64,000 nt of DNA, taken from NCBI GenBank assembly GCA_963727815.1, contig CAVSGV010000006.1, positions 583,471 through 647,470 of the forward strand, in the 5' to 3' direction. Positions 2,032 through 18,554 of this stretch are shown here, in pieces. Each line of letters opens with the position of its first letter. Position 1 is the stretch's first letter. Made by a program: the position numbers and the translations under genes. The stretch comes from an uncultured bacterium. Its GTDB lineage: Bacteria; Margulisbacteria; WOR-1; CAVSGV01. Under the pieces are notes generated by a model. It was given only the letters and a program-made list of their open reading frames with translations. It did no database searches and was not told where the DNA came from.

Positions 2032-5000
2032 TGTACCAGCTTTTCTATCTCCGTGTCCGTAAGCGGAACGACCCTGACGTGTTTGGAACTTATAAGGCTG
2101 TACGCGCACGGGACGACGAACAGCGTCAGTATTGTCGAAACAAAAAGCCCGCCGATGACCGCTATGGCCATAGGCGTGCGGACCTCGGCTCCCGGACCCC
2201 ACGCCAGGGCAGGGGGAATGGCGCCGGCGATGGTCGCGACGGACGTCATCAATATGGGACGAAGCCTTATGGGGCACGCTTCAAGCAGCGCTTCCCTTAT
2301 GTTCATGCCGCGCTCTCTCATCTGGTTCGTGAACTCGACGAGCAGGATGGAATTCTTTTTCACGATGCCCATCAGTAGTATGAATCCGATCATGCTGTAA
2401 ATGTTCAGCGACTGTCCCGTGACATACAGCGCAAGGAACGCTCCCGAGAAACTGAAGGGCAGGGCGGCGAGGACGACCACCGGATCGCTGAAGCTGTTGA
2501 ACTGCGAGCCCAGCACCATGTACGCGACGATTATACCCAGGATCAGCGCGAATATCAGGCTGTCAAAAGATTCCTTGAAAGCCTGCGCGTTGCCGCTGAA
2601 AACTATGTGATATTCCGGCGGCAGGGTCGCATTCGCTACCTCCTGTATCTTATCGAGCACCGCCGCCTGGCTCTTTCCGGGAGCGATGTTGCCGGCGATG
2701 GTTATGGCGCGCTCCCTGTCCAGGCGCGAGATGCTCTGCATGGCCGGCCGCTCAACGAGATGCGCCACCTTGCCCAGAGGGATAAGCTCGCCTCTGTTGT
2801 TGTGGACGTAAACGTCTTTCAGGATGTCCGGCCTGGTGTGCTCCGCGCCTATCATCTTTACAAGGATGTCATATCTGTGCCCGGCGTTCTCATATGTTCC
2901 CACCTTAAGCCCGCCGACCAGCGCCGAGATGGTCTGGCCGATCTCCGCGAAACTTACTCCGCGGCTTGCGGCAAGGTCGCGGTCCGGCACGATGTCATAT
3001 TCCGTCAGCCCCAGAAGATAATTGCTGTTCAGGTCCGTGGTCAGTCCCGTTTTTTCTATGTTGGCCATCAGCTGGACGCTGAGAGCTCCCAGCTTGTCCC
3101 AGTCGGGGCCCTTCAGCGTAAGTTCGATGGGATACTGGCCGGTGGACGCGAAACCGCGCAGCGACGGGTCTGTGACAAAAGCCTGTAGATCGGGTATTTT
3201 TTTCAGCTCGTTCCTGACGGCCTTCATCGACTCGGCCTGGGAAAGCCTGTGATGAAGGACCGGATCGATTCCGCGTTTTCCCTTGGGTTTAAGAGTAAGG
3301 AAGACATAAGGATTGATTAAGCCGGCCGCTTCCGCCGAATCCTCCGACCGTGGAGAAGACCGAATCCACTTCCGGCCGCTTTGCGATGATGGATTCCACC
3401 AGCCTGGATTTTTGGTCCGTGAAAGAAAGCGATGCCCAGGCGGGGGTCTGCAGGCGCACCGCGTAAAGGCTCTGGTCCTGCGGCGGAACAAGCTCGCTTC
3501 TCAGCGCTTGCCCACGGAGAAAGTGATGATAAAGAAGACCACCGACGACCACAGGATAAGTCCCCTGTGGTCCAGCGCCCAGTTAAGCGCCTTGCGGTAA
3601 GCGCCGTTCAGCCGCTTGAAATTCGTGTCTGATGTAAGCGGAGAACTTGTTGTCCTTGGCGCCCACCTCCACGAACTGCGAACAGCGCATCGGCGTAAGC
3701 GTAAGCGCTTCGAACAGCGAGAGAAGCACGGCGACGCTGATGGTCATGCCGAACTGGTAAAAATATTTCCCGATTATGCCCGTCATGAACGCCACGGGAA
3801 GGAATATGGCTATTATCGCGATGCTCGCCGCCATGGCCGCGAAGGTTATCTCCCGCGCGCCTTTCAGCGCTGCCTGGACCTTGTCCTCGCCTTTCTCCTG
3901 ATGCCGCATTATATTTTCAAGCACCATGATCGCGTCATCAACGACTATCCCTATCGCGAGGCTCAGCGCCATGAGAGTGAACATGTTCAGCGTAAAGCCC
4001 ATGAAATAAACGAAAATAAAAGTCCCGATGATCGACGTGGGTATCGCGAGCCAGACGTTCAGGACCGCCGACCACGACCCCAGGAAGAACCAGCAGACAA
4101 GTCCGGTGAGTATCGCCGAAAGAAGAAGCGTCACTTTAAGTTCGTTCACGGCATCGCTTATGAATTTTGTGTTGTCCATCCGGACCGAAAGCGTCATTCC
4201 TTTCGGCAGCTCTTTTTGGACCTCCGCCATTTTCGCGCGGACGCCTTTAGCTATTTCCACGGCATTTGTGTTCCTCTGTTTCAGGATGCCGAGGCCCACC
4301 GCGGCCACTCCGTTGGCGCGCGCTATGTGCTCTATGTCGGCCAGGCTGTCTTTTATGCTCGCCACCTTTATGAGAGTTATGGGAGCGTAATTCGCCTGTC
4401 CGCCGCGGTAGTTGAGCCGGATGTTCTCGAACTCCTGGACGCTCTTTGCCTCGCCCATCATCCGGACGGTGTGTTCGGCTTTTACGTCCGAAACGTAGCC
4501 GGCGGGAAGCTCCACGTGCTCGTTCATGACAGCGCTTACGACGTCCGTGGCGGTAAGTGCGTAGCGGTTCAGATCGTCCTTTCTCACTTCCACGCGCAGG
4601 TTCGGGTCCACGTATCCGCCGAGAACAACGTCCCCGACGCCGGAGACCGTGGTGAACTTGTCTTTCAGGATATTGTTCACGTAGGCCATGGCATCGCGGG
4701 TGGAAATGCCGGTGGTGTTCAGCGTCAGCCATATTATCGGCTGGTCGTCGGGATTGGTCTTTGTGATGACGGGCGGATCGATCTGCGACGGCAGCAGCCT
4801 CTGCGCCTGCGATATCTTTGACTGTATCTCCTGCACCGCCACGTCCACGTTCTTGTTGAGATTGAATTCCACCGTTACGCTCGTGGCGCCGTCGCGGGAA
4901 TTGGAGGTGACGGTCCTTACGCCTTCCACTCCCATGACCGCGTCCTCAATGTAGTCGGCGACGTCCGTTTCCATTATCTGGGGGGAAGCGCCGGGATAAG

Positions 5001-5148
5001 TGACGGTTACGGTAACGACGGGGAAATCCACGTCCGGCATGAGGCTGACGCCCATCCTCTGGAAAGAGATCGCGCCGAAAAGGATCAGCGCGAACATCAT
5101 CATCCACGCGAATACCGGCCGCTTTATCGAAATGTCGGATAATATCAT
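2028..5148 (-). pseudogene. RND (AcrB/HAE1-type) efflux permease interrupted by at least 3 frameshifts
   Basis: The N-terminal 521-aa ORF (3583..5148, MILSDISIKRPVFAWMM...) and the C-terminal ORF (2028..~3330, ...LLMGIVKKNSILLVEF...RLRPILMTS...) are the two halves of one ~1040-aa RND pump. The joining segment must be read in other frames: FKRLNGAYRKALNWALDHRGLILWSSVVFFIITFSVGKR, then LRSELVPPQDQSLYAVRLQTP...VFSTVGGFGGS. Shifts lie near 3625, 3498 and 3330. Confidence 0.8.
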
Positions 5149-5155
5149 TGCATCT

Positions 5156-6444
5156 TCACCTCCTGTCGGGAACGTTCACTGACGCGGTTATCGCCCAGAG
5201 CACGTTCATGTCCGCTTTCAGATCATATATGGCCTTGTTAAGCGAACGCGCCACGTCCTGATATGAGGTCATGGCCTGCAGGACGTCCAGGTTCGATACA
5301 AGCCCCAGGTCGTAATCGTTGGTCACCGCGCGTAATTCTTCTTCGCCAGGTCCGTGGCGTTCTGGAACGCTTTGACCTGTGATATATCATATGTAAGCCG
5401 CTGATAGTCGGTCCGCAGGTCGTCTTCCGCCATGCGCCTTGCCTGATCAAGATCGTTCTGGCTCTGACGCAAGAGCGATTCGGATTCTGCGTGTTTGGAA
5501 GTGTTGAACCCTCCGGTGAACAGCGGGAAGGGTGGCGGTTATCTCTCGCGTCCCACGTGCTGTCTTGCAGAGTGCCTTTCGGACGGCTGAAATAATAATC
5601 TGCCGAAAGGTCCGCCGACGGCCAGTAAGCGCCCGGTCGCGATATCAACGTTGTTCTTCGCGGCTTCTGCTCTTGCCATGGCCGCTTTAATGTCCGGACG
5701 ATCGCTCAGCTTTGCGTCATAAAATTCAAAACTGCCCATGGATGAAGGGATCATCTGCGGATCTGAAAGCTCTATCGACGACGGAAGGCCGGTCAAAAAA
5801 GATAGAAGCTCTCTTGCCGCGGAAAGCTGCGATTTCACCTGTTCCAGCTGGGCCATGAGCGTGGCGAGCGAGACCTGAACGGTCAGCACTTCGGTGGACC
5901 TTGACCTGCCTATTGCCACCCTTGCGTTGAGTTCGTCTATCCTTTTTTCATAAAGAGTCGGCTTCTTTCCGCAGGAGCGCGATGTCGTTCTCAAGGGAAA
6001 TGACAGTATAGAAAGCGTTGGCGGTGTCCTGGTAGAGCTGCAAAGCCGCCCATTGATATGCATCTTTTTGCGAAGTTATAAGGTTCTGGTTCAGTTTCAG
6101 CGCCGCGAAATCGCGGAAGCCCCTGGAAAAGCGGCATGGGTAATGGAAGCTTTGGTCGTTGCCTGGTCGCGGTAAAGCGAAGAATCCGTCCCGTCTGGAA
6201 TGAGCTTTGAAGTGTCCTGATTGAAATACGTATAGCCGGCGGAGACGTTCGGCAGCATTCCCGCGAGCGCCTGCTTAAAGTGCTCTTCGGCCTGATTCAC
6301 AAGCTCCCGGTTGTCGGCCATGACGTCGCTCTGTTTCAACGCAGCGCGGAAACACGTTTCAAGGTTAACAGGGTCGGCAGAGCATTGCAATGCGGAACCG
6401 GCGAGCATGATGCCAAGAATGATCAGAACAAATAATTTTTTCAT
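5156..6444 (-). pseudogene. TolC-family outer-membrane factor with at least 5 frameshifts
   Basis: The signal-peptide ORF 6097..6444 (MKKLFVLIILGIMLAGSALQC...) continues as TolC-like sequence only by hopping frames. The pieces are FRDFAALKLNQNLITSQKDAYQWAALQLYQDTANAFYTVISLENDIALL, then LYEKRIDELNARVAIGRSRSTEVL..., AYWPSADLSADYYF..., PLFTGGFNTSKHAESESLLRQSQNDLDQARR... and AVTNDYDLGLVSNLDVLQAMTSYQDVARSL...*. Stop TGA is at 5156-5158, just upstream of the RND start and overlapping an AGGAGG. Confidence 0.75.
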
Positions 6445-8972: not shown

Positions 8973-9710
8973 ATGTCTTTAATGCCGATCATTTTTTCTA
9001 CCGCGACTTTTTTTTCAACGCTCTTGGGCGGGCTGTTCGCCGTCCGATTCAGGAATAAACTTCACCCCCTTATGGCTTTTGCGGCGGGCGTTCTGCTTGC
9101 CGTTGTATGCTTTGATATTTTCCCGGAAATAATCGAACAAATAAAAGCAAATAATTTCAGTCCGTCCGAAGCGATGATAGCCATGGTCGCGGGTTTCCTT
9201 ATATTCCACATACTTGAAAAAAGCATTCTCATACATCATTCCCATGAAGACGAATACGCGAAGCACAAGCATCCGCAAGTGGGAGTCCTTTCCGCGCTGG
9301 CGCTCGCCGGCCACAGCTTTATGGACGGGGTGGGAATAGGGATAGGTTTCCAGGTGAACTACGCGATAGGCCTGCTCGTAGCGATAGCCGTCATCTCTCA
9401 CGATTTCACGGACGGAATGAACACCGTAACGCTGATGCTGACCCACAAGAACAAGATGAAAAGATCCATGATGCTTCTGCTTCTCGATTCTTTGACCCCG
9501 ATATTAGGAGCCGCTTCAACTCTGCTATTCAGGGCCTCTTCTCATTTCATGGTCCTGTACCTGGGGTTCTTTGCCGGATTTCTTCTCTATATCGGAGCAA
9601 GCGACATACTGCCGGAAGCCCACAGCGACAAAAGTTCATATCAGCTTATAGGACTGACCGTATTGGGAGTGATCTTTATTTATCTTGTCACCCGATTTGC
9701 GGTGTTCTGA
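8973..9710 (+). CDS. ZIP-family divalent metal transporter (ZupT-like)
   Basis: 245-aa polytopic protein with a His-rich loop (HHSHEDEYAKHKH) and the ZIP signature helices (HSFMDGVGIGIGF, ISHDFTDGMN). Confidence 0.85.
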   Translation: MSLMPIIFSTATFFSTLLGGLFAVRFRNKLHPLMAFAAGVLLAVVCFDIFPEIIEQIKANNFSPSEAMIAMVAGFLIFHILEKSILIHHSHEDEYAKHKHPQVGVLSALALAGHSFMDGVGIGIGFQVNYAIGLLVAIAVISHDFTDGMNTVTLMLTHKNKMKRSMMLLLLDSLTPILGAASTLLFRASSHFMVLYLGFFAGFLLYIGASDILPEAHSDKSSYQLIGLTVLGVIFIYLVTRFAVF

Positions 9711-9749
9711 GCCGTAATTTCCCCTATGTCCGCCGGGATCATCCGATTA

Positions 9750-9815
9750 TTTACGCTTTCTTTACGCAAACAACCTCGCTCTTTACTTGCCTGCCGACGG
9801 CGACGGGTCGATAAT
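9750..9815 (+). promoter_or_regulatory. Putative KdpE box + -10 element, copy 1
   Basis: Direct repeat TTTACG-ctttc-TTTACG (9750-9766), a third half-site CTTTACTTGCC (9781-9791), and GATAAT (9810-9815). This resembles the E. coli KdpE site (TTTATActtttTTTACA). A near-identical module is at 10739-10783. Confidence 0.4.
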
Positions 9816-9824
9816 AGTCGCGCA

Positions 9825-10022
9825 ATGGATATAAGTTTTTTTGCGGCAGTTGTTTTCGCGCTAATGATCATCGCAATGCTGATCTTTTTGGTCTACTCGA
9901 TGGCATATCCGGAGAAATTATCCCGGACAGATTGGAGCGCTCATGTTATTGACCTTTCCAAAAGCAGGATGGGAGGAGATGAGAATTGTTATGATCCGAC
10001 AAAAGATTATTATCGTATTTAG
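9825..10022 (+). CDS. KdpF-like small membrane peptide (second copy) with its stop lost and a 3' extension
   Basis: MDISFFAAVVFALMIIAMLIFLVYSMAYPEKL... parallels the canonical KdpF (…LIMLVYLTYAMFNPEKF*). The stop is missing and the frame runs on 33 codons into the next gene. Remnant kdpA codons (CGGACAG) follow the PEK motif. Confidence 0.35.
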   Translation: MDISFFAAVVFALMIIAMLIFLVYSMAYPEKLSRTDWSAHVIDLSKSRMGGDENCYDPTKDYYRI

Positions 10023-10716
10023 CTTGATAGCGATGACAATGATATGTGCTTGTGGTGTATTCGCTACTCCTTCTTCACAGATATGGAATCCGTCGACGGA
10101 CATTCAATCGGCGGGAACGTGGCATCTCGGTATTGACAACTATTTTACGGTCGCCTGGCCGAAGGATACGAATAACACTTTTTATCCGACGGATGTAAAT
10201 CTAACGTACGGCGCTTTGCCGGGACTTGAGATGGGGATAGATTCTTTTTCGCCAAGCGCGGCTCAATACGAGTTCAACGCGAAGTACGGGATCCCCGAGA
10301 ACGGAAATCTGCCCGCATTTGCGTTAGGCGCGCAGAACATGGGCTTTAACGTGGACTCCGATAAGAGGAACATCGATTGGAGCATTTGGTACTCCGTCGT
10401 TGCCAAGACTTTCAGTTTCGGCAGATTGACCGGCGGATATTACACGGGGAACGATCACGTGCTTGTTAACAATAACGGCGATAAAGCGAATACCGGTTTC
10501 ATCGCGACATGGGATAAAGCTATTACGGATAAGATATGGTTGTGCCTGGATTATGCCAGCGGTTATTCAGCCTACGGTTCTTTCTTTTACGGCGGATCGT
10601 ATTCGTTCTCTTCCAACACGTCGGTGATATTCGGATACGGAACTTTCAACAGGCATCAGAATTCCGGCGATGGGTTCGATCCCGTTATCACGACTCAGCT
10701 GGACATCAATATATAG
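9991..10716 (+). CDS. Secreted beta-barrel (porin-like) outer-membrane protein
   Basis: It has a signal peptide (MIRQKIIIVFSLIAMTMICACGVFA). The sequence is rich in G/Y/S/N/T with alternating-residue strands (GSYSFSSNTSVIFGYGTF, IWLCLDYASGYSAYGSFFYGG). An alternative ATG is at 9979 and the track start is 9943. The call rests on composition only. Confidence 0.45.
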   Translation: MIRQKIIIVFSLIAMTMICACGVFATPSSQIWNPSTDIQSAGTWHLGIDNYFTVAWPKDTNNTFYPTDVNLTYGALPGLEMGIDSFSPSAAQYEFNAKYGIPENGNLPAFALGAQNMGFNVDSDKRNIDWSIWYSVVAKTFSFGRLTGGYYTGNDHVLVNNNGDKANTGFIATWDKAITDKIWLCLDYASGYSAYGSFFYGGSYSFSSNTSVIFGYGTFNRHQNSGDGFDPVITTQLDINI

Positions 10717-10738
10717 TCATGAACAATACATCACATTC

Positions 10739-10783
10739 TTTACGCTTTCTTTACTTGCCAACCGGCTGCGGCAGTATGATAAT
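10739..10783 (+). promoter_or_regulatory. Putative KdpE box + -10 element, copy 2 (kdpFABC promoter)
   Basis: TTTACG-ctttc-TTTACT (10739-10755), then GATAAT (10778-10783), 9 nt before the kdpF ATG. It is a direct-repeat half-site pair with 5-nt spacing, as for OmpR/PhoB-family regulators. Confidence 0.45.
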
Positions 10784-10792
10784 GGCCGCATT

Positions 10793-10882
10793 ATGAACTT
10801 AGGTTTTATAGTCTCAGGAATTGTCGCTTTGATCATGCTGGTCTACCTGACGTACGCGATGTTCAATCCGGAGAAATTCTGA
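10793..10882 (+). CDS. kdpF: K+-transporting ATPase subunit F
   Basis: A 29-aa single-TM peptide, MNLGFIVSGIVALIMLVYLTYAMFNPEKF, immediately upstream of kdpA. Confidence 0.7.
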   Translation: MNLGFIVSGIVALIMLVYLTYAMFNPEKF

Positions 10883-10883
10883 C

Positions 10884-12572
10884 ATGCGGACAGCCGACTA
10901 CGCGCAGGTACTTCTTTATATCGGCGCTTTCATAGCTCTTACTCCTCTGCTTGGCTCCTACATGGCGGCGGTTTTCGAAGGCAGGAATACCTTCATGTCC
11001 CGCATCTGCGCGCCGGTCGAGCTTACATTATATAAGCTCTGTGGGATAGACAACAAAGAAGAAATGGGCTTCATGGACTACACGAAAGCGATGATCTGGT
11101 TCAATCTCTTCGGTTTTATTTTCGTCCTTGTCCTTCAGATGGTCCAGAAATATCTGCCGCTGAATCCCTACCACCTGCCGAACGTGGGCTGGGACCTTTC
11201 GTTCAACACGGCCATGAGCTTCATGACCAATACGAACTGGCAGGCATATTCCGGAGAGAGCACACTGAGTTATCTTACGCAGATGATCGGACTCACTGTC
11301 CAGAATTTCGTGAGCGCCGCGACGGGCATCGCAGTGTTCCTCGCATTTACAAGAGGGCTTATCAATCGTTCAACATCATCGCTCGGAAATTTTTGGACGG
11401 ACCTGGTCAGATCGACGGTCTACGTCCTTCTTCCTCTCTCGATCATCCTGGCTGTCCTTCTTGCGGGACAGGGAGTGGTCCAGACTTTTGCGCCGTATAA
11501 GAACATCACCACGCTCCAGGGAGCCCAGCAGGTGCTTCCGGTTGGACCAGCCGCTTCGCAGATCGCGATCAAGCAGCTTGGCAGCAACGGTGGTGGTTTC
11601 TACGGCGTAAACAGCGCGCACCCTTATGAGAACCCGACGCCTTTCTCCAATTTCCTTGAAGTGCTTGCGATAATACTCATTCCCGCCGGACTTGTTTATA
11701 CGTATGGCGTAATGATAAAGAATAAAAAACACGCGTGGCTGCTTTTCATCGTCATGTTCATTATATTCGCGGGAGGCTTGGCGCTTTCTTTGTGGTCGGA
11801 ATATTCAAGCGCGATACCGAAAGTGGTAACGGCGCTGGAAGGGCAGGAGGTCCGGTTCGGAGTCACTAACAGCATCATCTGGTCGGTGGCAACGACCGTC
11901 GTCTCGAACGGCTCCGTTAACGCGATGATCTCATCCCTTTCGCCCATTGCGGGCGGGGTGGCTCTATTCAATATCATGCTCGGCGAAATAATATTCGGCG
12001 GCGTGGGGGCAGGAATGTACGGAATACTTCTTCACGTCATGCTCACCGTTTTTCTGGCGGGGCTGATGGTGGGAAGAACTCCGGAATATCTGGGAAAAAA
12101 GATCGAAGGCAACGAAATGAAAATGGTCATTCTCAGCATTCTTCTGCCTTCCGTTTTCGTTCTTGCAGGGTCGGCGGTGTCTTGCGTTCTCCCCATCGCG
12201 CTCTCAAGTCTGGGGAACGGAGGGCCTCACGGTTTGAGCGAAATACTCTACGCTTTCACATCTGCTTCGAACAACAACGGCAGCGCGTTCGCGGGGCTCA
12301 ACGCCAATACGATCTATTATAATGTATTCCTCGGCCTTGCGATGCTCGTGGGCAGGTTCGGCGTGATAATCCCGGTCATGTACATTGCCGGCAGTATGAC
12401 AATGAAAAAGATATCACCCGTTACCGCCGGGACCTTCTCCACCGAAAGCACTTTGTTCGCGGTGCTTCTCATCGGCGTGTTCATCATAGTGGGCGTCCTG
12501 ACGTTCCTTCCGGCGCTGTGCCTCGGCCCCATCATCGAGCATCTCCTGATGCTGAAAGGATTCATCATCTGA
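10884..12572 (+). CDS. kdpA: K+-transporting ATPase subunit A
   Basis: 562-aa polytopic protein with KdpA-typical segments ([23 protein letters not shown] selectivity-filter-like motifs). Its position is kdpF-A-B-C. Confidence 0.95.
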
Positions 12573-14632
12573 TGGCGCACAAAGTTGAGATAGACAACAG
12601 AAAACTGACAATAAGAGCTATCGGAGATTCATTCCGGAAGCTTCATCCGAAGGAAGAGATGAGGAATCCCGTCATGTTCCTCACTTTCATCGGAGCGATA
12701 CTAACTACGTGTTATTCTCTCCATTCGTTTTTCAACGCCGTCATCAGCATATGGCTGTGGTTCACCGTTCTCTTCGCAAATTTCGCTGAAGCGCTGGCGG
12801 AGGGCAGGGGAAAAGCGCAGGCGGATTCTTTGAAGCGCACAAGGTCGGAGCTTACCGCCAGGCTTTTGAAAGACGGAAAAGAAAGCGTCGTTGCCGCCTG
12901 CAATCTTAGAAAAGGCGACGTGGTGGTGTGCGAAGCGGGCAACGTCATCCCCTGCGACGGCGAGGTCATCGAGGGAGTGGCGAGTGTTGACGAATCCGCA
13001 GTCACCGGCGAATCTGCTCCCGTCATAAGAGAATCCGGCGGCGACAGGAGCGCGGTCACCGGCGGGACAAAAGTTATCAGCGATAAAATAATCATTCAGG
13101 TCACTTCCAACCCGGGCGATACCTTCCTCGACAGGATAATACTTTTGATCGAAGGAGCCAAACGCCAGAAGACGCCGAACGAGATCGCCTTGAGCATCGT
13201 CCTCTCCGGACTTACGATAATTTTCCTTCTCGCGGTCGTCTCTCTGAAATTTTACGCGGACTACAGCGGAGCGGTGGCAAAACAGGATCTCTCTCACATC
13301 GTAACTGTTCCGGTCCTCGTGGCGCTCCTAGTTTGCCTCATCCCGACGACAATCGGCGGTCTGCTCAGCGCGATAGGCATCGCCGGCATGGACAGGCTCA
13401 TCAGGCGGCACGTCATCGCAAAAAGCGGAAGATCGATAGAAGCGGCGGGAGACATCGACGTCCTTCTCCTTGATAAGACCGGCACTATCACCATAGGCAA
13501 CCGGATGGCGTCAGAATTCGTTCCGGCAAAAGGGATCGAAGAAGCGACCTTCGCCGACATCGCGCAGCTGTCTTCCCTCGCCGATGAAACTCCGGAAGGA
13601 AGATCGATCGTAGTTCTTGCGAAAGACAGATTCGGACTTAGAGGCCGCGAATTGCAGGCGCACGAAGCAAAGTTCATACCGTTCTCGGCGAACACTCAGA
13701 TGAGCGGAGTGGATTTTATCGACGCTTCCGGAAAGGTAACGCGCTCCATACGCAAAGGATCCGTCGACGCCATCACCAAGCTTGCCGGCAAATTTCCGGA
13801 GGAGCTTGATTCCGCCGTTAAGAGGATATCTGCGAGCGGAGGCACTCCTCTTGCAGTCGCGGACGGCAATCGCGTCACGGGCGTCATCCATCTGAAAGAC
13901 ATCGTTAAAGGCGGAATAAAAGAAAAGTTCAAGGAACTGCGCTCTATGGGAATAAGGACGATAATGATAACCGGCGACAATCCTCTTACCGCGGCGGCGA
14001 TCGCGGCGGAGGCGGGAGTTGACGATTTCATCGCTCAGGCGACGCCTGAATCAAAACTCAAGCGGATAAGGGATGAGCAGGCGAACGGGCATCTTGTGGC
14101 GATGACGGGCGACGGGACGAACGACGCGCCTGCTTTGGCTCAAGCCGATGTTGGCGTCACGATGAACACGGGAACGCAGGCGGCAAGGGAAGCGGGCAAT
14201 ATGGTGGACCTGGAGAGCAACCCGACGAAACTCATCGACATAGTCGCCATCGGAAAACAGCTTCTCATCACGAGAGGGGCGCTCACCACTTTCAGCATTG
14301 CCAACGACGTCGCGAAATACTTCGCCATCATCCCCGCGATTTTCGGAACTCTTTACGCAACGAACGGGATGAACGGGCCGCTTTCCATATTCAACATCAT
14401 GAGACTTCACTCGCCGCAGAGCGCGATACTCAGCGCCGTTATCTTTAATGCTTTGATAATAGTAATGTTGATACCGCTGGCTCTTCGCGGAGTCGCTTAC
14501 AGGAGCGAGAGCGCGTCATCTCTGCTTCGGCGTAATTTGCAGCTATACGGTCTCGGCGGACTGGTGGCGCCTTTTATCGGGATAAAGATCATCGACGTCC
14601 TGCTCGCGCTAATGAAGGTGAACTTAAGATGA
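12572..14632 (+). CDS. kdpB: K+-transporting P-type ATPase subunit B
   Basis: P-type ATPase motifs DKTGTIT, TGDN and [13 protein letters not shown] set the start at ATG 12572, overlapping the kdpA stop (ATGA); the track ORF extends upstream artefactually. Confidence 0.95.
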
Positions 14633-15171
14633 AGCACATTACCAACGCTCTGAAAATGTTCCTGGCAATGACGATATTGACCGGCATCATATATCCGCTG
14701 CTCATCACAGGGATCGCTCAATTATGCTTCAACAAGCAGGCGAATGGCGATCCTTATCTCATCGGCCAGAAGTTCGACAAGAATAAATATTTCTGGTCCA
14801 GGCCGTCATCGGTGGATTACGCCACGATCCCGTCGGGCGCAAGCAATCTTTCCGCCACAAGCAAAGCCCTGAAAGATCAGGTCACCGCCAGGAAAAAAGC
14901 GATCCTTGCCTCTGACCGGACAAAAAAAGAAGCTCAGATACCTTCCGACATGATCTACGCGTCGGGCAGCGGCATCGACCCCCACATCAGCTATGCTTCC
15001 GCCGTTTTCCAGGCTGACAGGATCGCGAAAGCGCGGAAAATGAAAAAAGAAGACGTCATAAAACTGATATCGCAGGTGAGAGAAGGCAGGGACTTCCTGA
15101 TACTCGGCGACCGCAGAGTGAACGTGCTTAAGCTGAATCTTCTCTTGGACAAGCTATCATCGAAGGAATAA
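14629..15171 (+). CDS. kdpC: K+-transporting ATPase subunit C
   Basis: 180 aa with a single N-terminal TM and a KdpC-like GSGIDPHIS motif. There is a 4-nt overlap with kdpB. Confidence 0.9.
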
Positions 15172-15184
15172 AATAAAAAACAAT

Positions 15185-17881
15185 ATGGGCGATGTTTATC
15201 AACGGCTTACGCCGGAAGAAGCGCTGAAGATCGCGAGCAAGGGTCCGCAGAGAGGCAAGCTCAAGGTGTTCATCGGCTACGCCGCAGGCGTCGGAAAGAC
15301 CTTTACCATGCTCAACGAGGGCAACCGCCGCCATAAGCGCGGCGAGGACATAGTCATCGGATACGTTGAAGCTCACGGCCGTGCCGATACCGACGCTCAG
15401 ATAGGCGACCTCGAGCTCATCCCCAAAAAGAAGATAGAATACCAGGGACATACTTTCGAGGAAATGGATACGGAAGCCATCATCAAAAGGCATCCCACCA
15501 CCGTTCTCATCGACGAACTCGCGCACACGAACGTCCCGGGTTCAAAAACCACGAAGCGATATGAAGACGTTAGAGAGATCCTCGATGCCGGAATAAACGT
15601 CATAACCACCCTGAACGTCCAGCACCTGGAGAGCCTGAACGACATGATCAAGACCATCACCGGCGTCATTGTCCGCGAGACCATACCGGACAGCGTGGTG
15701 GCGCAGGCAGACGAGCTTGTGGCGGTGGACATCACGATCGACGCTCTTCTTAATCGTTTGAAAAGAGGAGACATCTACAAGAAGGACAAGATAGATTCCG
15801 CTCTCAGGAATTTTTTCCGCGAGGGCAACCTGAACGCGCTTAGAGAGATCGCTCTGCGGCAGACGGCGCAGGAAGTGGACGAGGACCTGGCGGAGTACAT
15901 GAAGGAACACGGCATCGAAGAAGCGTGGCAGACAGTGGACCGCATAATGGTCTGCATCGGCACAAGCCCCAACGCGAAAAAGCTGATAAGAAGAGGCGCC
16001 CTTATCGCCAGGCGCTACAGGTCCGAATGGTTCGTCGTGGCGGTGGAAGGAAAAGGATTTTTCGCCGCGAAATGGGACGGCAAGGATAAAACGGAGCTTG
16101 AGAGCAGTTTCAAGCTCGCGGAACAGCTGGGCGCGAAAACGGTCACGCTCTCCGGGCTGGACATCGCGTCGGAGCTGGAGAGGTTCGCGAGGCAGCAGCA
16201 CATCACGCAAATAGTCATCGGACATTCGGGCAGGACCCTTCTCCAGCAGATATTCGTCGGATCCACCACAAGCAGATTGATAAGAGAAACAAAGAACGTG
16301 GCCATCCACGTAATGCCGGTGAGCGAGTTCGAAGAGACCAAAGAAAGCTTCGCGCAGGGATTGCCGGGGTTCAATTTTGAGGGAGGCTTGAACGATTACT
16401 GGGTCATTGGGGGATCGCTTCTGGCGGTCACTGCCATCGGCTGGCTGCTCAAACCATATCTGGGATATCAGGCGGTCGGATTCCTGTTCCTGCTGGCGGT
16501 GCTCATCTTAAGCATGTTCATTTCGTTCTTTCCCATGCTGATATTTGCGGTCTTAAGCGTGCTGACGTGGGATTTTATTTTCATACCGCCGGCGAACACT
16601 TTTGTCATAGCGAAAAAAGAGGACATGATAATGTCCATCATCTATGTGGTAACGGCCGTGGTAATGGGCTACCTTACGAGCAAGATAAGGAAGGACGAGC
16701 GGCTCATCGCCGTCCGGGAGAACAGGTTCGAGACCATGTACAGGATCGTTTCCGTAATAGCTTCCGCAAGAGACCGCCACCAGTGCATAACCGACATTGA
16801 AAAAGAAGTTGAAGTGATGCTGGAGGGCAAATGCAAGGCAATAGTCAAGAACGACATAGTGAAATACGAGGACATCCTTCGGTTGAACATCCCCGGTGAC
16901 GAAAAGGAGCTTTCCGTCGCGATGCTGGTATATGAAAAGGGACAGCCTGCGGGATGGGGGACGGACATTCTTTCCGTTGCAAAGAACATTTACATTCCGC
17001 TGAAGGGACCGGCGGAAACGGTGGGCGTGCTCTCTTTCGGTCGTGAGAACAGGAAGCCGCTTTCTCAGGAGGAAATGAACATTCTGCTCACCATATCCAA
17101 CCAGCTGGCGGTCTACCTGGAAAGGGAGCTTTTAAGAGAGAGGGCGGTGGAGGCGCAGGAGCTGAGGGACGCCGAAAAACTTTATCAGACCGTCCTGAAC
17201 ACCGTTTCGCACGAAGTGAGAACGCCCATAACCACCATAAGCGGCATCACATCCGTCCTCAGGGATGAGAACGTCATCGGGAACGCGGATTCAAGGAAAG
17301 AACTTGTGAATGAGCTCTCCGATTCCGTGGAGCGGCTGGACCGCGTTTTTACGAACATTCTGGACATGACGAGGCTAAGCTCCGGCAGGATATCTCTCAA
17401 GAAGGAATGGTATGGACTTGATGAGATAATAAGCTCGATGCGCAGCGACCTGAGCAAGAAATTCGGCGGTCACAAACTTACCGTTGATATATCGGACGAT
17501 CTCCCGTCGTTAAGAGTGGACTTCAATCTTTTCCAGCAGGCGATATCGAACATTGTGCTCAACGCCGTCAATTACACGCCGGAGGGAACGGCTATCTCCA
17601 TCCGGGCGTCGAGGGACGCGGATAAAGTATCGATAATCATTTCCGATACGGGTCCGGGCGTGAAAGAGGATGAGCTTCCTTTCATATTCGACAAATTCTA
17701 CAGGGCAAAGGGCAGCCCTCCTGGCGGGATAGGCCTCGGACTCACAATAACGAAAGGCATCATCGAGGCGCACGAAGGGAACATCGCTGCGTACAATATC
17801 AAGCCTCACGGGCTTGCAGTAAAGATATTGCTTCCAGTTGAAGAAGAGCCCGAAGGCCTGGAAAAACTCATCAATGAGTAA
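15185..17881 (+). CDS. kdpD: Sensor histidine kinase KdpD
   Basis: 898 aa. It has the N-terminal KdpD P-loop domain (GYAAGVGKT), a USP-like region, a four-TM block, a GAF-like region, an H-box (SHEVRTPIT) and a HATPase_c domain (DTGPGV...GIGLGL). Confidence 0.95.
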   Translation: MGDVYQRLTPEEALKIASKGPQRGKLKVFIGYAAGVGKTFTMLNEGNRRHKRGEDIVIGYVEAHGRADTDAQIGDLELIPKKKIEYQGHTFEEMDTEAIIKRHPTTVLIDELAHTNVPGSKTTKRYEDVREILDAGINVITTLNVQHLESLNDMIKTITGVIVRETIPDSVVAQADELVAVDITIDALLNRLKRGDIYKKDKIDSALRNFFREGNLNALREIALRQTAQEVDEDLAEYMKEHGIEEAWQTVDRIMVCIGTSPNAKKLIRRGALIARRYRSEWFVVAVEGKGFFAAKWDGKDKTELESSFKLAEQLGAKTVTLSGLDIASELERFARQQHITQIVIGHSGRTLLQQIFVGSTTSRLIRETKNVAIHVMPVSEFEETKESFAQGLPGFNFEGGLNDYWVIGGSLLAVTAIGWLLKPYLGYQAVGFLFLLAVLILSMFISFFPMLIFAVLSVLTWDFIFIPPANTFVIAKKEDMIMSIIYVVTAVVMGYLTSKIRKDERLIAVRENRFETMYRIVSVIASARDRHQCITDIEKEVEVMLEGKCKAIVKNDIVKYEDILRLNIPGDEKELSVAMLVYEKGQPAGWGTDILSVAKNIYIPLKGPAETVGVLSFGRENRKPLSQEEMNILLTISNQLAVYLERELLRERAVEAQELRDAEKLYQTVLNTVSHEVRTPITTISGITSVLRDENVIGNADSRKELVNELSDSVERLDRVFTNILDMTRLSSGRISLKKEWYGLDEIISSMRSDLSKKFGGHKLTVDISDDLPSLRVDFNLFQQAISNIVLNAVNYTPEGTAISIRASRDADKVSIIISDTGPGVKEDELPFIFDKFYRAKGSPPGGIGLGLTITKGIIEAHEGNIAAYNIKPHGLAVKILLPVEEEPEGLEKLINE

Positions 17882-18554
17882 AGGCGCGAAGATACTTGTC
17901 ATCGACGATGAAAAGTCCATCCGCAAGCTGCTCGAAATAAGCCTGAACGCCGAAGGTTATGAAGTCATCCCGGCAAAGACCGGCAAGGAAGGATTGCTTG
18001 AAGCTGCGAACCATAATCCGGACGTGGTCATCCTCGACCTGGGCCTTCCCGACATGCAGGGCCTGGACGTCCTGAAAAAGCTGAAGGACCGGACGTCCAC
18101 TCCCGTTATCATACTGACAGTCAAGGATGCCGACGCCGAAAAAGTGGCGCTTCTTGACGCTGGAGCCGACGATTATCTTACAAAGCCTTTCAGCGTGGAC
18201 GAGCTTACCGCCAGGATCAGGGTCGCTCTGCGGCACAGCGTGAATCTGCAGGAGGAGCCGGTCTTTACGCGCGGAAAGCTGACGATAGATTTCAATTCAA
18301 GGACCGTGAAGGCGGGGGCGGAGCAGGTGCATCTCACCGCCAAAGAATTCGATCTTCTCAAGAGCCTTGTCAGGAACGCCGGGAAGATAGTGACCCAGAA
18401 ACAACTGCTGAAGGAAGTTTGGGGGCCTTCGGCGGAGGATCAATCCCATTATCTGCGCATCTATTTCGGCCAGCTGAGAAAAAAGCTGGAAAAATATTCC
18501 ATCTCGAACATCATAATCACTGAACCCGGCGTCGGCTACAGGCTGAATATTTGA
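17874..18554 (+). CDS. kdpE: OmpR-family response regulator KdpE
   Basis: Receiver domain (ILVIDDE...DLGLPDM...K) plus a winged-helix output domain (…GVGYRL). The start at ATG 17874 overlaps the kdpD end by 8 nt. Confidence 0.9.
   Translation: MSKGAKILVIDDEKSIRKLLEISLNAEGYEVIPAKTGKEGLLEAANHNPDVVILDLGLPDMQGLDVLKKLKDRTSTPVIILTVKDADAEKVALLDAGADDYLTKPFSVDELTARIRVALRHSVNLQEEPVFTRGKLTIDFNSRTVKAGAEQVHLTAKEFDLLKSLVRNAGKIVTQKQLLKEVWGPSAEDQSHYLRIYFGQLRKKLEKYSISNIIITEPGVGYRLNI

Follow-up and report, generated by a model that had tools for sequence, protein, structure and literature searches.

At the micromolar concentrations at which the Kdp pump acts, the passage of K+ across the outer membrane is usually credited to general porins. 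For phosphate, dedicated channels are known: in the Pho regulon, PhoB controls the porins PhoE (Escherichia coli) and OprP/OprO (Pseudomonas) together with a high-affinity inner-membrane transporter. The regulator of the Kdp system in E. coli, KdpE, binds TTTATA-N5-TTTACA direct repeats at -72 to -50 of the kdpFABC promoter, the only promoter for which that paper describes a KdpE site, and requires its residues R193, R200 and T215 for DNA binding (PMC3264566). Here we analyze the head of the kdp operon in a 64,000-nt stretch of DNA (the window; contig CAVSGV010000006.1, positions 583,471 to 647,470, forward strand) from an uncultured Margulisbacteria genome (GCA_963727815.1, hereafter G000; assembly of 1,682,457 bp), where a KdpE-type promoter is present twice and a gene for a predicted outer-membrane beta-barrel lies between the two copies. 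Our preferred reading, to which we assign a probability of roughly 0.7 on comparative sequence evidence, is that the operon head comprises two sigma70-type promoters with KdpE boxes, and that the captured barrel gene is probably co-induced with the pump at low K+.

Positions 9740-9930 and 10729-10893 of the window are diverged copies of one module, made up of TTTAC direct repeats, a -35 and a -10 element, kdpF and the first codons of kdpA. The promoters of copies 1 and 2 are called P1 and P2, and the kdpF-like open reading frame (ORF) of copy 1 is called kdpF'. The features concerned are as follows.

9750..9786, + strand: P1 operator with the ancestral architecture, its TTTAC half-sites at three positions (9750, 9761 and 9782), 11 and 21 bp apart
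9787..9815, + strand: P1 core promoter, -35 TTGCCT, 17-nt spacer, -10 GATAAT; 9/12 matches in the promoter scan
9825..10022, + strand: kdpF', an ORF of 65 codons reaching 32 nt into the barrel gene; homology to kdpF covers codons 1-32 (9825-9920)
9991..10716, + strand: outer-membrane beta-barrel gene, 241 residues, with a signal peptide and a 12-strand barrel in the AlphaFold2 model
10739..10754, + strand: P2 operator, a pair of TTTAC half-sites matching P1 boxes 1-2 at 16/16 positions; abuts the -35
10755..10783, + strand: P2 core promoter, -35 TTGCCA, 17-nt spacer, -10 GATAAT; 10/12 matches, the best of the region
10793..10882, + strand: kdpF, intact, 29 aa; PF09604 E = 6.8e-10, TIGR02115 E = 1.3e-7
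10884..12572, + strand: kdpA ORF; copy 1 retains a duplicate of its codons 2-4 (CGGACAG, 10887-10893)

Copy 1 reads TTTACGCTTTCTTTACG at 9750, followed by the third TTTAC at 9782, TTGCCT at 9787, GATAAT at 9810-9815 and an ATG at 9825, from which an ORF runs to a first stop at 10022 (MDISFFAAVVFALMIIAMLIFLVYSMAYPEKL; MDISFF...LVYSMAYPEKL...). Copy 2 reads TTTACGCTTTCTTTAC at 10739, followed by TTGCCA at 10755, GATAAT at 10778-10783, kdpF at 10793-10882 and the kdpA start ATG CGG ACA G from 10884. At the kdpF-kdpA junction, copy 2 has CCGGAGAAATT-CTGACATG-CGGACAG, whereas copy 1 has CCGGAGAAATT (9909-9919), ATCC (9920-9923) and CGGACAG (9924-9930); an 8-to-4-nt change has thus removed both the kdpF stop and the kdpA ATG, and fused kdpF' in frame to kdpA codons 2-3. 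An earlier reading of these letters by a model, the original prediction, had described the two copies in just this way, with the stop and start codons lost and a remnant of kdpA codons 2-4 kept in copy 1, and re-reading of both sites bears it out.

The same prediction had proposed aligning the copies against shuffled controls. In Smith-Waterman alignments with 1000 dinucleotide shuffles, the whole module (9735-9945 against 10725-10905) gives a local score of 38, against 17.3 ± 2.4 for shuffled sequence (z = 8.5), well above chance, and significance also holds for the non-coding part on its own (z = 9.7) and for the kdpF segment (z = 6.8). The copies are ~70% identical with several indels. The pattern TTTACG-N5-TTTAC occurs at exactly two sites in the assembly, both at the kdp locus, and its reversed control at none. 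The duplication of the KdpE-type promoter, kdpF and the start of kdpA is real and old. Divergence is also distributed as had been claimed, with the coding parts diverged and the boxes conserved: boxes, -35 and -10 together are identical between the copies at 27/28 positions (16/16 in the 16-nt box, 5/6 in the -35, 6/6 in the -10), against 13/26 for the spacer plus the -10-to-ATG stretch (Fisher p = 1e-4), and 55% of the synonymous sites differ between kdpF and kdpF' (synonymous divergence, dS, ~1). Because the 17-nt spacer has diverged while the elements flanking it were kept, a recent conversion tract is an unlikely explanation for the identity of the boxes.

Both promoters have sigma70-type hexamers with 17-nt spacers (the scan took -35 and -10 hexamers 16-18 nt apart and found 6 sites in total, against 2.2 expected). 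An E. coli-type KdpE operator consists of two imperfect 6-bp TTTAYA-like direct repeats, 5 bp apart, with the first two T invariant (PMC3264566); the window has TTTACG-CTTTC-TTTACG at 9750 and TTTACG-CTTTC-TTTACT at 10739. The E. coli repeat given in the prediction, TTTATA-N5-TTTACA, agrees with the published one. P2 equals P1 minus 21 nt, GCAAACAACCTCGCTCTTTAC, which in P1 sit between two CTTTAC repeats, a flanking arrangement that points to a slippage deletion in copy 2. Since 21 bp correspond to two helical turns, the boxes of P2 would keep their face of the helix while now adjoining the -35. The -10 of P1 begins 60 nt past box 1, and a -10 is found at +59 or +60 in G000 P1, in the related loci L038 and L198, and in G041, a genome from Elusimicrobia discussed below. 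Relative to the transcription starts predicted from the -10 elements, the positions are about -71 to -56 for P1 boxes 1-2 and about -51 to -36 for the P2 boxes, which would place the former as in E. coli and the latter in a PhoB-like position.

A box-1-anchored gapless alignment of 10 promoters (both of those in G000, both in L038, and six from more distant kdp operons of the class) has TTTAC-type half-sites at 0/+11/+32 in every promoter except G000 P2 and L030, the latter with ATTAC as its third half-site. This layout is common to L024, L026-L029, L038 (both copies), L198 and G041 (both copies). Copy 1 thus carries the ancestral operator and copy 2 a derived, shortened one, which reverses the prediction's description of a 21-nt insert in copy 1: the three-half-site layout is the older state and copy 2 carries a 21-bp deletion. 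Synonymous sites between G000 and L038 are saturated (dS of 1.4 for the ZIP gene upstream of P1, 2.2 for kdpA and 3.5 for the barrel gene), and despite this saturation the two P1 operators are identical at 33/42 positions by a hand count on the promoter alignment. P1 and P2 both look to be under constraint.

The presumed sensor and the regulator expected to read the boxes are encoded at the end of the same operon.

15185-17881 and 17874-18554, + strand: kdpD and kdpE; Pfam KdpD, Usp, HisKA and HATPase_c in the former, Response_reg and Trans_reg_C in the latter

The window's KdpE (17874-18551) aligns with E. coli KdpE (4KNY; E = 6.7e-67), and R193, R200 and T215 are all retained. Its recognition helix is almost wholly conserved (SHYLRIYFGQLRKKLE, against SHYLRIYMGHLRQKLE in E. 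coli), with the wing IITEPGVGYRL. Scanning one genome per species with TTTACGCNNTNTTTAY-N16-TTTAC (motif TTTACGC..T.TTTAY-N16-TTTAC) returned at least 119 loci, and in at least 31 of the 119 motif matches listed kdpF-kdpA follows in the same orientation a few hundred bases downstream. The hosts of these kdp-linked motifs include Oxalobacteraceae (Massilia, Duganella), Paenibacillus, cyanobacteria, Competibacteraceae, Armatimonadales and Saganbacteria. The tie between motif and kdpF-kdpA across phyla argues that the three-half-site layout is a widespread hallmark of kdp promoters, and the TTTAC boxes of the window fit a KdpE operator. Like the E. coli kdpFABC promoter, the locus has T-rich 6-bp direct repeats with a 5-bp spacer upstream of kdpF, kdpD and kdpE at the end of the operon, and the same DNA-contact residues in KdpE. 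Unlike it, P1 has a third half-site two turns downstream, beside the -35 (also the case in several other phyla), and the promoter is present in two copies, one with its operator shifted 21 bp to the -35, with an extra gene between them. The relaxed patterns TTTAYR-N5-TTTAY and TTTAC-N6-TTTAC are found elsewhere in the genome at or below the level of their reversed-pattern controls, so no wider KdpE regulon can be claimed.

Two further kdp promoters seen in these searches stand apart from the locus. In the Victivallales metagenome-assembled genome (MAG) CAYTFM010000153.1 (L070, 799-2700), the three-half-site motif also occurs twice, another duplication of a kdp promoter, with one copy preceding kdpF-kdpA and the other a gene of 573 residues whose product has the N-terminal sensor domain of KdpD. 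Upstream of kdpF in the small genome G003 (L023, G003:C27), whose KdpA is the nearest to that of the window, the boxes are degenerate (AATACGCTTTCTAAC), the invariant TT is lost, and there is neither a barrel gene nor a small hydrophobic ORF (sORF); KdpE control may have decayed there.

The order of genes between promoter and kdpA differs among relatives, which include the Candidatus Saganbacteria genome G007 (= L089) of the same class.

Six class relatives: P-sORF-kdpF-kdpA, where sORF is a hydrophobic ORF of 37-50 residues
L198: geneX-P-barrel-sORF-kdpF-kdpA, with a single promoter
L038: ZIP-P1-barrel-sORF-P2-kdpF-kdpA, with the promoter duplicated and no kdpF'
G000 (window): ZIP-P1-kdpF'-kdpA'-barrel-P2(Δ21)-kdpF-kdpA
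G003 (KdpA 88% identical): no barrel, no sORF, degenerate boxes

From these states, a plausible series runs from P-sORF-kdpF-kdpA through P-barrel-sORF-kdpF-kdpA to P1-barrel-sORF-P2-kdpF-kdpA. Because L198 has one promoter, ahead of the barrel gene, the likely course is that the barrel gene entered the operon downstream of the existing promoter, with a second promoter arising later in front of kdpF. The promoter that now precedes the barrel gene would accordingly occupy the place of the original operon promoter. The kdpF-proximal promoter is probably the later copy, at least in L038, whose P1 and P2 have ~85% identity over the stretch that begins at the boxes and ends at the ribosome-binding site. 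The original prediction held that an old duplication had placed the promoter in front of the barrel gene; the duplication is indeed old and the barrel gene does appear to stand behind a KdpE-type promoter, but the direction was probably the reverse. It had also suggested looking for the same duplication in relatives, and the search found the promoter duplicated without kdpF' in L038 and the full layout in G041. In the window genome the copied unit extends through kdpF into kdpA codon 4, which could reflect a conversion event in which P2 overwrote P1, or else an insertion that duplicated a long target. We also considered that the barrel gene had joined the kdp operon recently and in the window genome alone, a view that L038, L198 and the barrel tree led us to reject.

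The sORF of the relatives is a loosely conserved hydrophobic frame of 37-64 residues (MLExIL.VIY.I.I..G..LGL.Y...) that several Saganbacteria-class operons carry after the KdpE-box promoter and before kdpF (L038, 1999-2193; L198, ~1387-1518; upstream of kdpF in L024-L027, L029, L030 and L089). It is absent from the window, and may encode a small Kdp-associated membrane peptide not yet described, or be a leader.

The gene captured at this locus belongs to a family with other attachments. Its AlphaFold2 model (mean per-residue confidence, pLDDT, 85.2; predicted template-modelling score, pTM, 0.78) starts with a helix (residues 2-18), after which come 12 strands, and Foldseek matches it best to porins of the OmpF/OmpC type and to FapF (probability 1.0, TM-score 0.35-0.51, identity 9-14%). 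No Pfam or NCBIfam family matches it, and its 707 homologues are all unnamed or labelled hypothetical proteins. With FapF, a small 12-stranded barrel, and with OmpF/OmpC, the product shares a signal peptide and an all-beta antiparallel barrel, both predicted here; unlike them it has no family-level sequence match and falls in no described porin family. An N-terminal motif, TPSTQIWNPSTD, is highly conserved and modelled at low confidence. The tolC genes in the window lead one to expect an outer membrane. From the fold and from neighbors such as Amt, P-II, glutamine synthetase and kdp, we infer that the product is a porin-like outer-membrane channel.

A paralogue of the barrel gene lies ~280 nt past the end of the window (G000:C6:647746-648462; L002 1338-2220) and is 88% identical, 93% over the mature part. 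It stands behind a gene for a sigma54 enhancer-binding protein and a -24/-12 site, TGGCCAGATTGTTGCT, and is followed by an APC-type amino-acid permease gene. DNA homology between the two G000 barrel genes (~90%) starts sharply at ~10060, the signal-peptide cleavage site, and ends at the stop codon, a confinement to the mature part that we read as an older duplication followed by gene conversion with the paralogue. With dS = 0.45 and a ratio of nonsynonymous to synonymous rates (omega) of 0.10, both paralogues are under purifying selection. The ntrC-barrel context prevails in most class relatives, and in metagenome relatives Amt, P-II and glutamine synthetase genes come before or after the barrel gene. 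Sigma54-like sites precede 6/7 of the ntrC/amt-linked barrels checked and none of the kdp-linked ones; a sigma54 promoter for the window's kdp-linked barrel was likewise rejected, since a search of 9700-10000 gave none, in contrast to the region ahead of the paralogue. The barrel tree places both G000 genes with kdp-linked L038 (97/75), with the ntrC/amt-linked L037 and L039-41 as sister. The barrel is a paralogue of a sigma54/NtrC/Amt-linked family and, in our preferred explanation, would have been rewired from a nitrogen to a potassium regulon.

The reading frame kdpF' occupies the space between P1 and the barrel gene. Its frame is intact over 32 codons, with a sole indel of 9 nt, in frame; the product stays hydrophobic and keeps Y-x-M-x-x-PEK. 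In both copies the ATG lies 9 nt past the -10, which would mean a nearly leaderless mRNA. Between kdpF and kdpF' the proportions of differing sites are 0.55 for synonymous (pS) and 0.29 for nonsynonymous sites (pN), with omega ~0.38. Of the 29 residues 17 have changed, and because kdpF is nearly identical in G003 and L198, nearly all of these replacements can be assigned to the kdpF' branch. The 33-residue tail is unconserved. Neither the first 32 nor the first 36 residues of kdpF' match the Pfam KdpF family even at E <= 10, and no homologue of the 65-aa product was found among 5.8 billion proteins. Homology to kdpF is visible at the DNA and codon level only. Compared with KdpF (PF09604), the 29-residue subunit of the Kdp-ATPase, kdpF' is alike in deriving from it by duplication (z = 6.8) and in keeping Y..M..PEK, and differs in missing the family's profile hidden Markov model, in having lost its stop, in carrying a kdpA remnant plus a 33-residue tail, and in overlapping the next gene.

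Three identities for kdpF' were tried and rejected: membership of the KdpF family, given the lack of a Pfam match and of a stop until 10022 (the family has ~29 residues, with PE[KR]F followed by the stop); a conserved protein, given that no homologue was found; and a copy of the relatives' hydrophobic sORF, since the alignment gave no specific similarity. We conclude that kdpF' appears lineage-specific and under relaxed constraint. It is probably, with some uncertainty, a translated leader or a remnant, possibly acting in translational coupling, and not a working Kdp subunit.

A comparable arrangement has arisen in a different phylum. The Elusimicrobia MAG G041 (CAIXBR010000109.1) has the order P1-kdpF'-barrel-P2-kdpF-kdpA, with three half-sites in each promoter. 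Its kdpF' has 41 residues and ends in ...LLYPEKLPILRRYN (YPEKL); the original ATG is now ATA, a new in-frame ATG lies upstream, and the stop overlaps the barrel ATG as TAATG. In both lineages the original kdpF stop has been lost, so that the frame closes on the barrel ATG in G041 and extends 32 nt into the barrel gene in G000. The G041 barrel is 42% identical to that of G000 and 63-78% identical to barrels of related genomes, among whose contexts, as far as examined, G045, G055 and G041's own second barrel copy are amt-adjacent. Because P1 and P2 of G041 resemble each other more than either resembles any G000 copy, the capture appears to have been independent. In G045 and G055 an amt-barrel pair lies directly upstream of the kdp promoter, and in L043 (Ga0315274_10000006, 3010-5755) kdpF-kdpA and barrel-amt-glnB-glnA are divergent and separated by ~320 nt, with kdpF starting near 3113 and the barrel ATG at 3435; these arrangements are plausible precursors of the linkage between kdp and the barrel gene.

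In two Elusimicrobia genomes (L177, 2242-2430; L182, reverse complement, 2224-2418) an ORF of 62-64 residues, nearly all N/Q and ending CCC, lies between an amt-linked barrel gene and a kdp promoter, followed by a terminator-like hairpin.

Taken as a mechanism, K+ limitation would lead phosphorylated KdpE to activate both P1 and P2. P1 would transcribe kdpF' and the barrel gene and run on into kdpFABC, and P2 would drive kdpF-kdpABC-kdpDE directly, such that an outer-membrane channel and the inner-membrane Kdp pump would be made together. That P1 transcripts probably continue into kdpFABC follows from the finding that no terminator-like site lies between the barrel gene and P2. If kdpF' serves as a translated leader, ribosomes reading it would run into the start region of the barrel gene. 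The barrel gene appears to sit behind a KdpE-type promoter, no other recognisable promoter having been seen, and the comparative case for its recruitment into KdpE control is well supported.

Several findings weigh against this account or limit it. The P2 operator, adjoining the -35, differs from the E. coli site, and P2 could be weaker or otherwise regulated. No terminator-like site was found between the ZIP gene and P1 either, which means that ZIP transcripts may read through into the barrel gene. The RNA fold predicted for 9822-10030, the region of the barrel start, does not stand out from shuffled sequences (z = 0.57), which leaves coupling by unmasking of the barrel ribosome-binding site unsupported. 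The linkage is rare: of the 146 species representatives in the phylum, G000 alone has the barrel gene next to kdpA. The metagenome scan yielded only 9 loci. Either of two orders of events, insertion behind P1 or copying of a promoter to a place before the barrel gene, fits the window genome, as homogenisation within the genome has erased orthology downstream of box 3.

Given the open path from the ZIP gene, one could suppose that copy 1 is a dead relic and that the barrel gene is transcribed independently of K+, by that read-through or from an unrecognised promoter, its boxes having been kept by chance or by recent conversion. A kdpF' without stop, Pfam match or homologues would suit this view, as would the fact that gene conversion does occur here, having homogenised the barrel paralogues exactly over the mature part. 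We nevertheless consider it unlikely, as conservation is specific to the elements (27/28, against ~50% in the spacer and the -10-to-ATG stretch) and a conversion tract would not skip the spacer; moreover, the orthologous P1 of L038 and L198 keeps its operator in spite of saturated synonymous sites, and G041 evolved the same layout independently. If the boxes are functional, they might still be read by another regulator of the OmpR/PhoB family, alone or with KdpE, with a signal for the barrel such as osmotic or nitrogen stress. The half-sites that such regulators read are short, AT-rich sequences, the barrel family is elsewhere under nitrogen control, and the operators of P1 and P2 differ in geometry. 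Less probable still than a relic, this alternative has to contend with the confinement of the exact box to the kdp locus in the window genome, with the strong tie of the motif to kdpF-kdpA across phyla, with the E. coli KdpE site, which shares half-site sequence, spacing and predicted position, and with the conserved recognition residues of KdpE.

Whichever regulator acts, kdpF' might be a functional KdpF paralogue, a small membrane peptide serving the barrel or the Kdp pump. Its frame has been held for 32 codons at dS ~1 with a single 9-nt indel, hydrophobicity and Y..M..PEK are retained, the 9-nt distance from -10 to ATG is common to both copies, and G041 independently keeps a kdpF' ending in YPEKL, complete with a replacement ATG. 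Yet L038 and L198 have the barrel gene without kdpF', the Pfam match is absent, 17/29 residues have changed with omega ~0.4 and replacements nearly all on the kdpF' branch, no homologue was found among the 5.8 billion proteins, and the 33-residue tail is unconserved; we regard this possibility as doubtful, about on a par with a dead copy 1. Finally, the genome is a 70%-complete MAG, and the duplication might be an artefact of assembly. We give this hardly any weight, as copies ~70% identical with several indels are not a collapsed or expanded repeat, and the independent assemblies L038 and G041 show a similar layout. Of all these accounts we prefer that of two KdpE-box promoters with the barrel gene co-induced.

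The genes on either side complete the locus.

8973..9710, + strand: ZIP-family metal transporter gene (Pfam Zip E = 1.7e-18), its stop 39 nt before the first box
12572..15171, + strand: kdpB and kdpC (Pfam E1-E2_ATPase and Hydrolase; KdpC E = 9.5e-60)

The ZIP gene is 86% identical to the one upstream of P1 in L038, where the junction between ZIP and P1 is the same. The intact kdpF (10793-10879) scores 39 bits against PF09604 (cut-off 21.2) and 31.4 against TIGR02115 (cut-off 26.85), and is 85-89% identical to the kdpF of G003 and L198. KdpA is 88% identical to that of G003 and 70% to that of L038. The region 8973-12572 has a mosaic appearance, close to L038 in its ZIP gene (86%) but not in KdpA (70% there, 88% to G003), and this looks like recombination or exchange of kdp genes among relatives. 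In two genomes of the same family (L031/L035, G001:C7; L032/L036, G004:C1), tblastn pieces show kdpA split over at least two reading frames, which may mark pseudogenes or assembly indels.

Compared with the porins of the Pho regulon, this locus would likewise join an OmpR/PhoB-family regulator, a dedicated channel and a transporter, and direct-repeat boxes at or replacing the -35 are a feature that P2 shares. Here, in contrast, the channel would serve K+ uptake under KdpE control, and the 12-strand barrel lies outside the described porin families. In the literature surveyed, the coverage of which is incomplete, no KdpE-controlled porin and no Amt-linked outer-membrane channel of the barrel family was found. 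We put forward tentatively, and at somewhat less than even odds, a broader proposal: that the 12-stranded family is a dedicated outer-membrane channel for small monovalent cations (NH4+ and K+), of which a paralogue of the nitrogen-regulated copy was captured at the kdp operon head at least twice (in the Saganbacteria class and in Elusimicrobia) by duplication of the KdpE promoter together with kdpF, with each kdpF copy losing its stop and reading up to or into the start of the barrel gene, and selected as a KdpE-controlled, translationally coupled 'K+ porin'.

Independently of that proposal, the locus offers an example of how a regulon may grow, by gene insertion, promoter duplication, a phase-preserving 21-bp deletion in an operator and concerted evolution, with intermediates surviving in relatives; and the KdpE operator would in many phyla carry a third half-site two helical turns downstream. 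If the proposal holds, the 'K+ porin' would be the outer-membrane counterpart of the Kdp pump, analogous to PhoE and OprP for phosphate. A specific barrel gene appears to have been wired repeatedly to a KdpE promoter in uncultivated diderm phyla, from a family that otherwise travels with ammonium transporters, which suggests that K+ and NH4+ cross the outer membrane by a nutrient-specific step.

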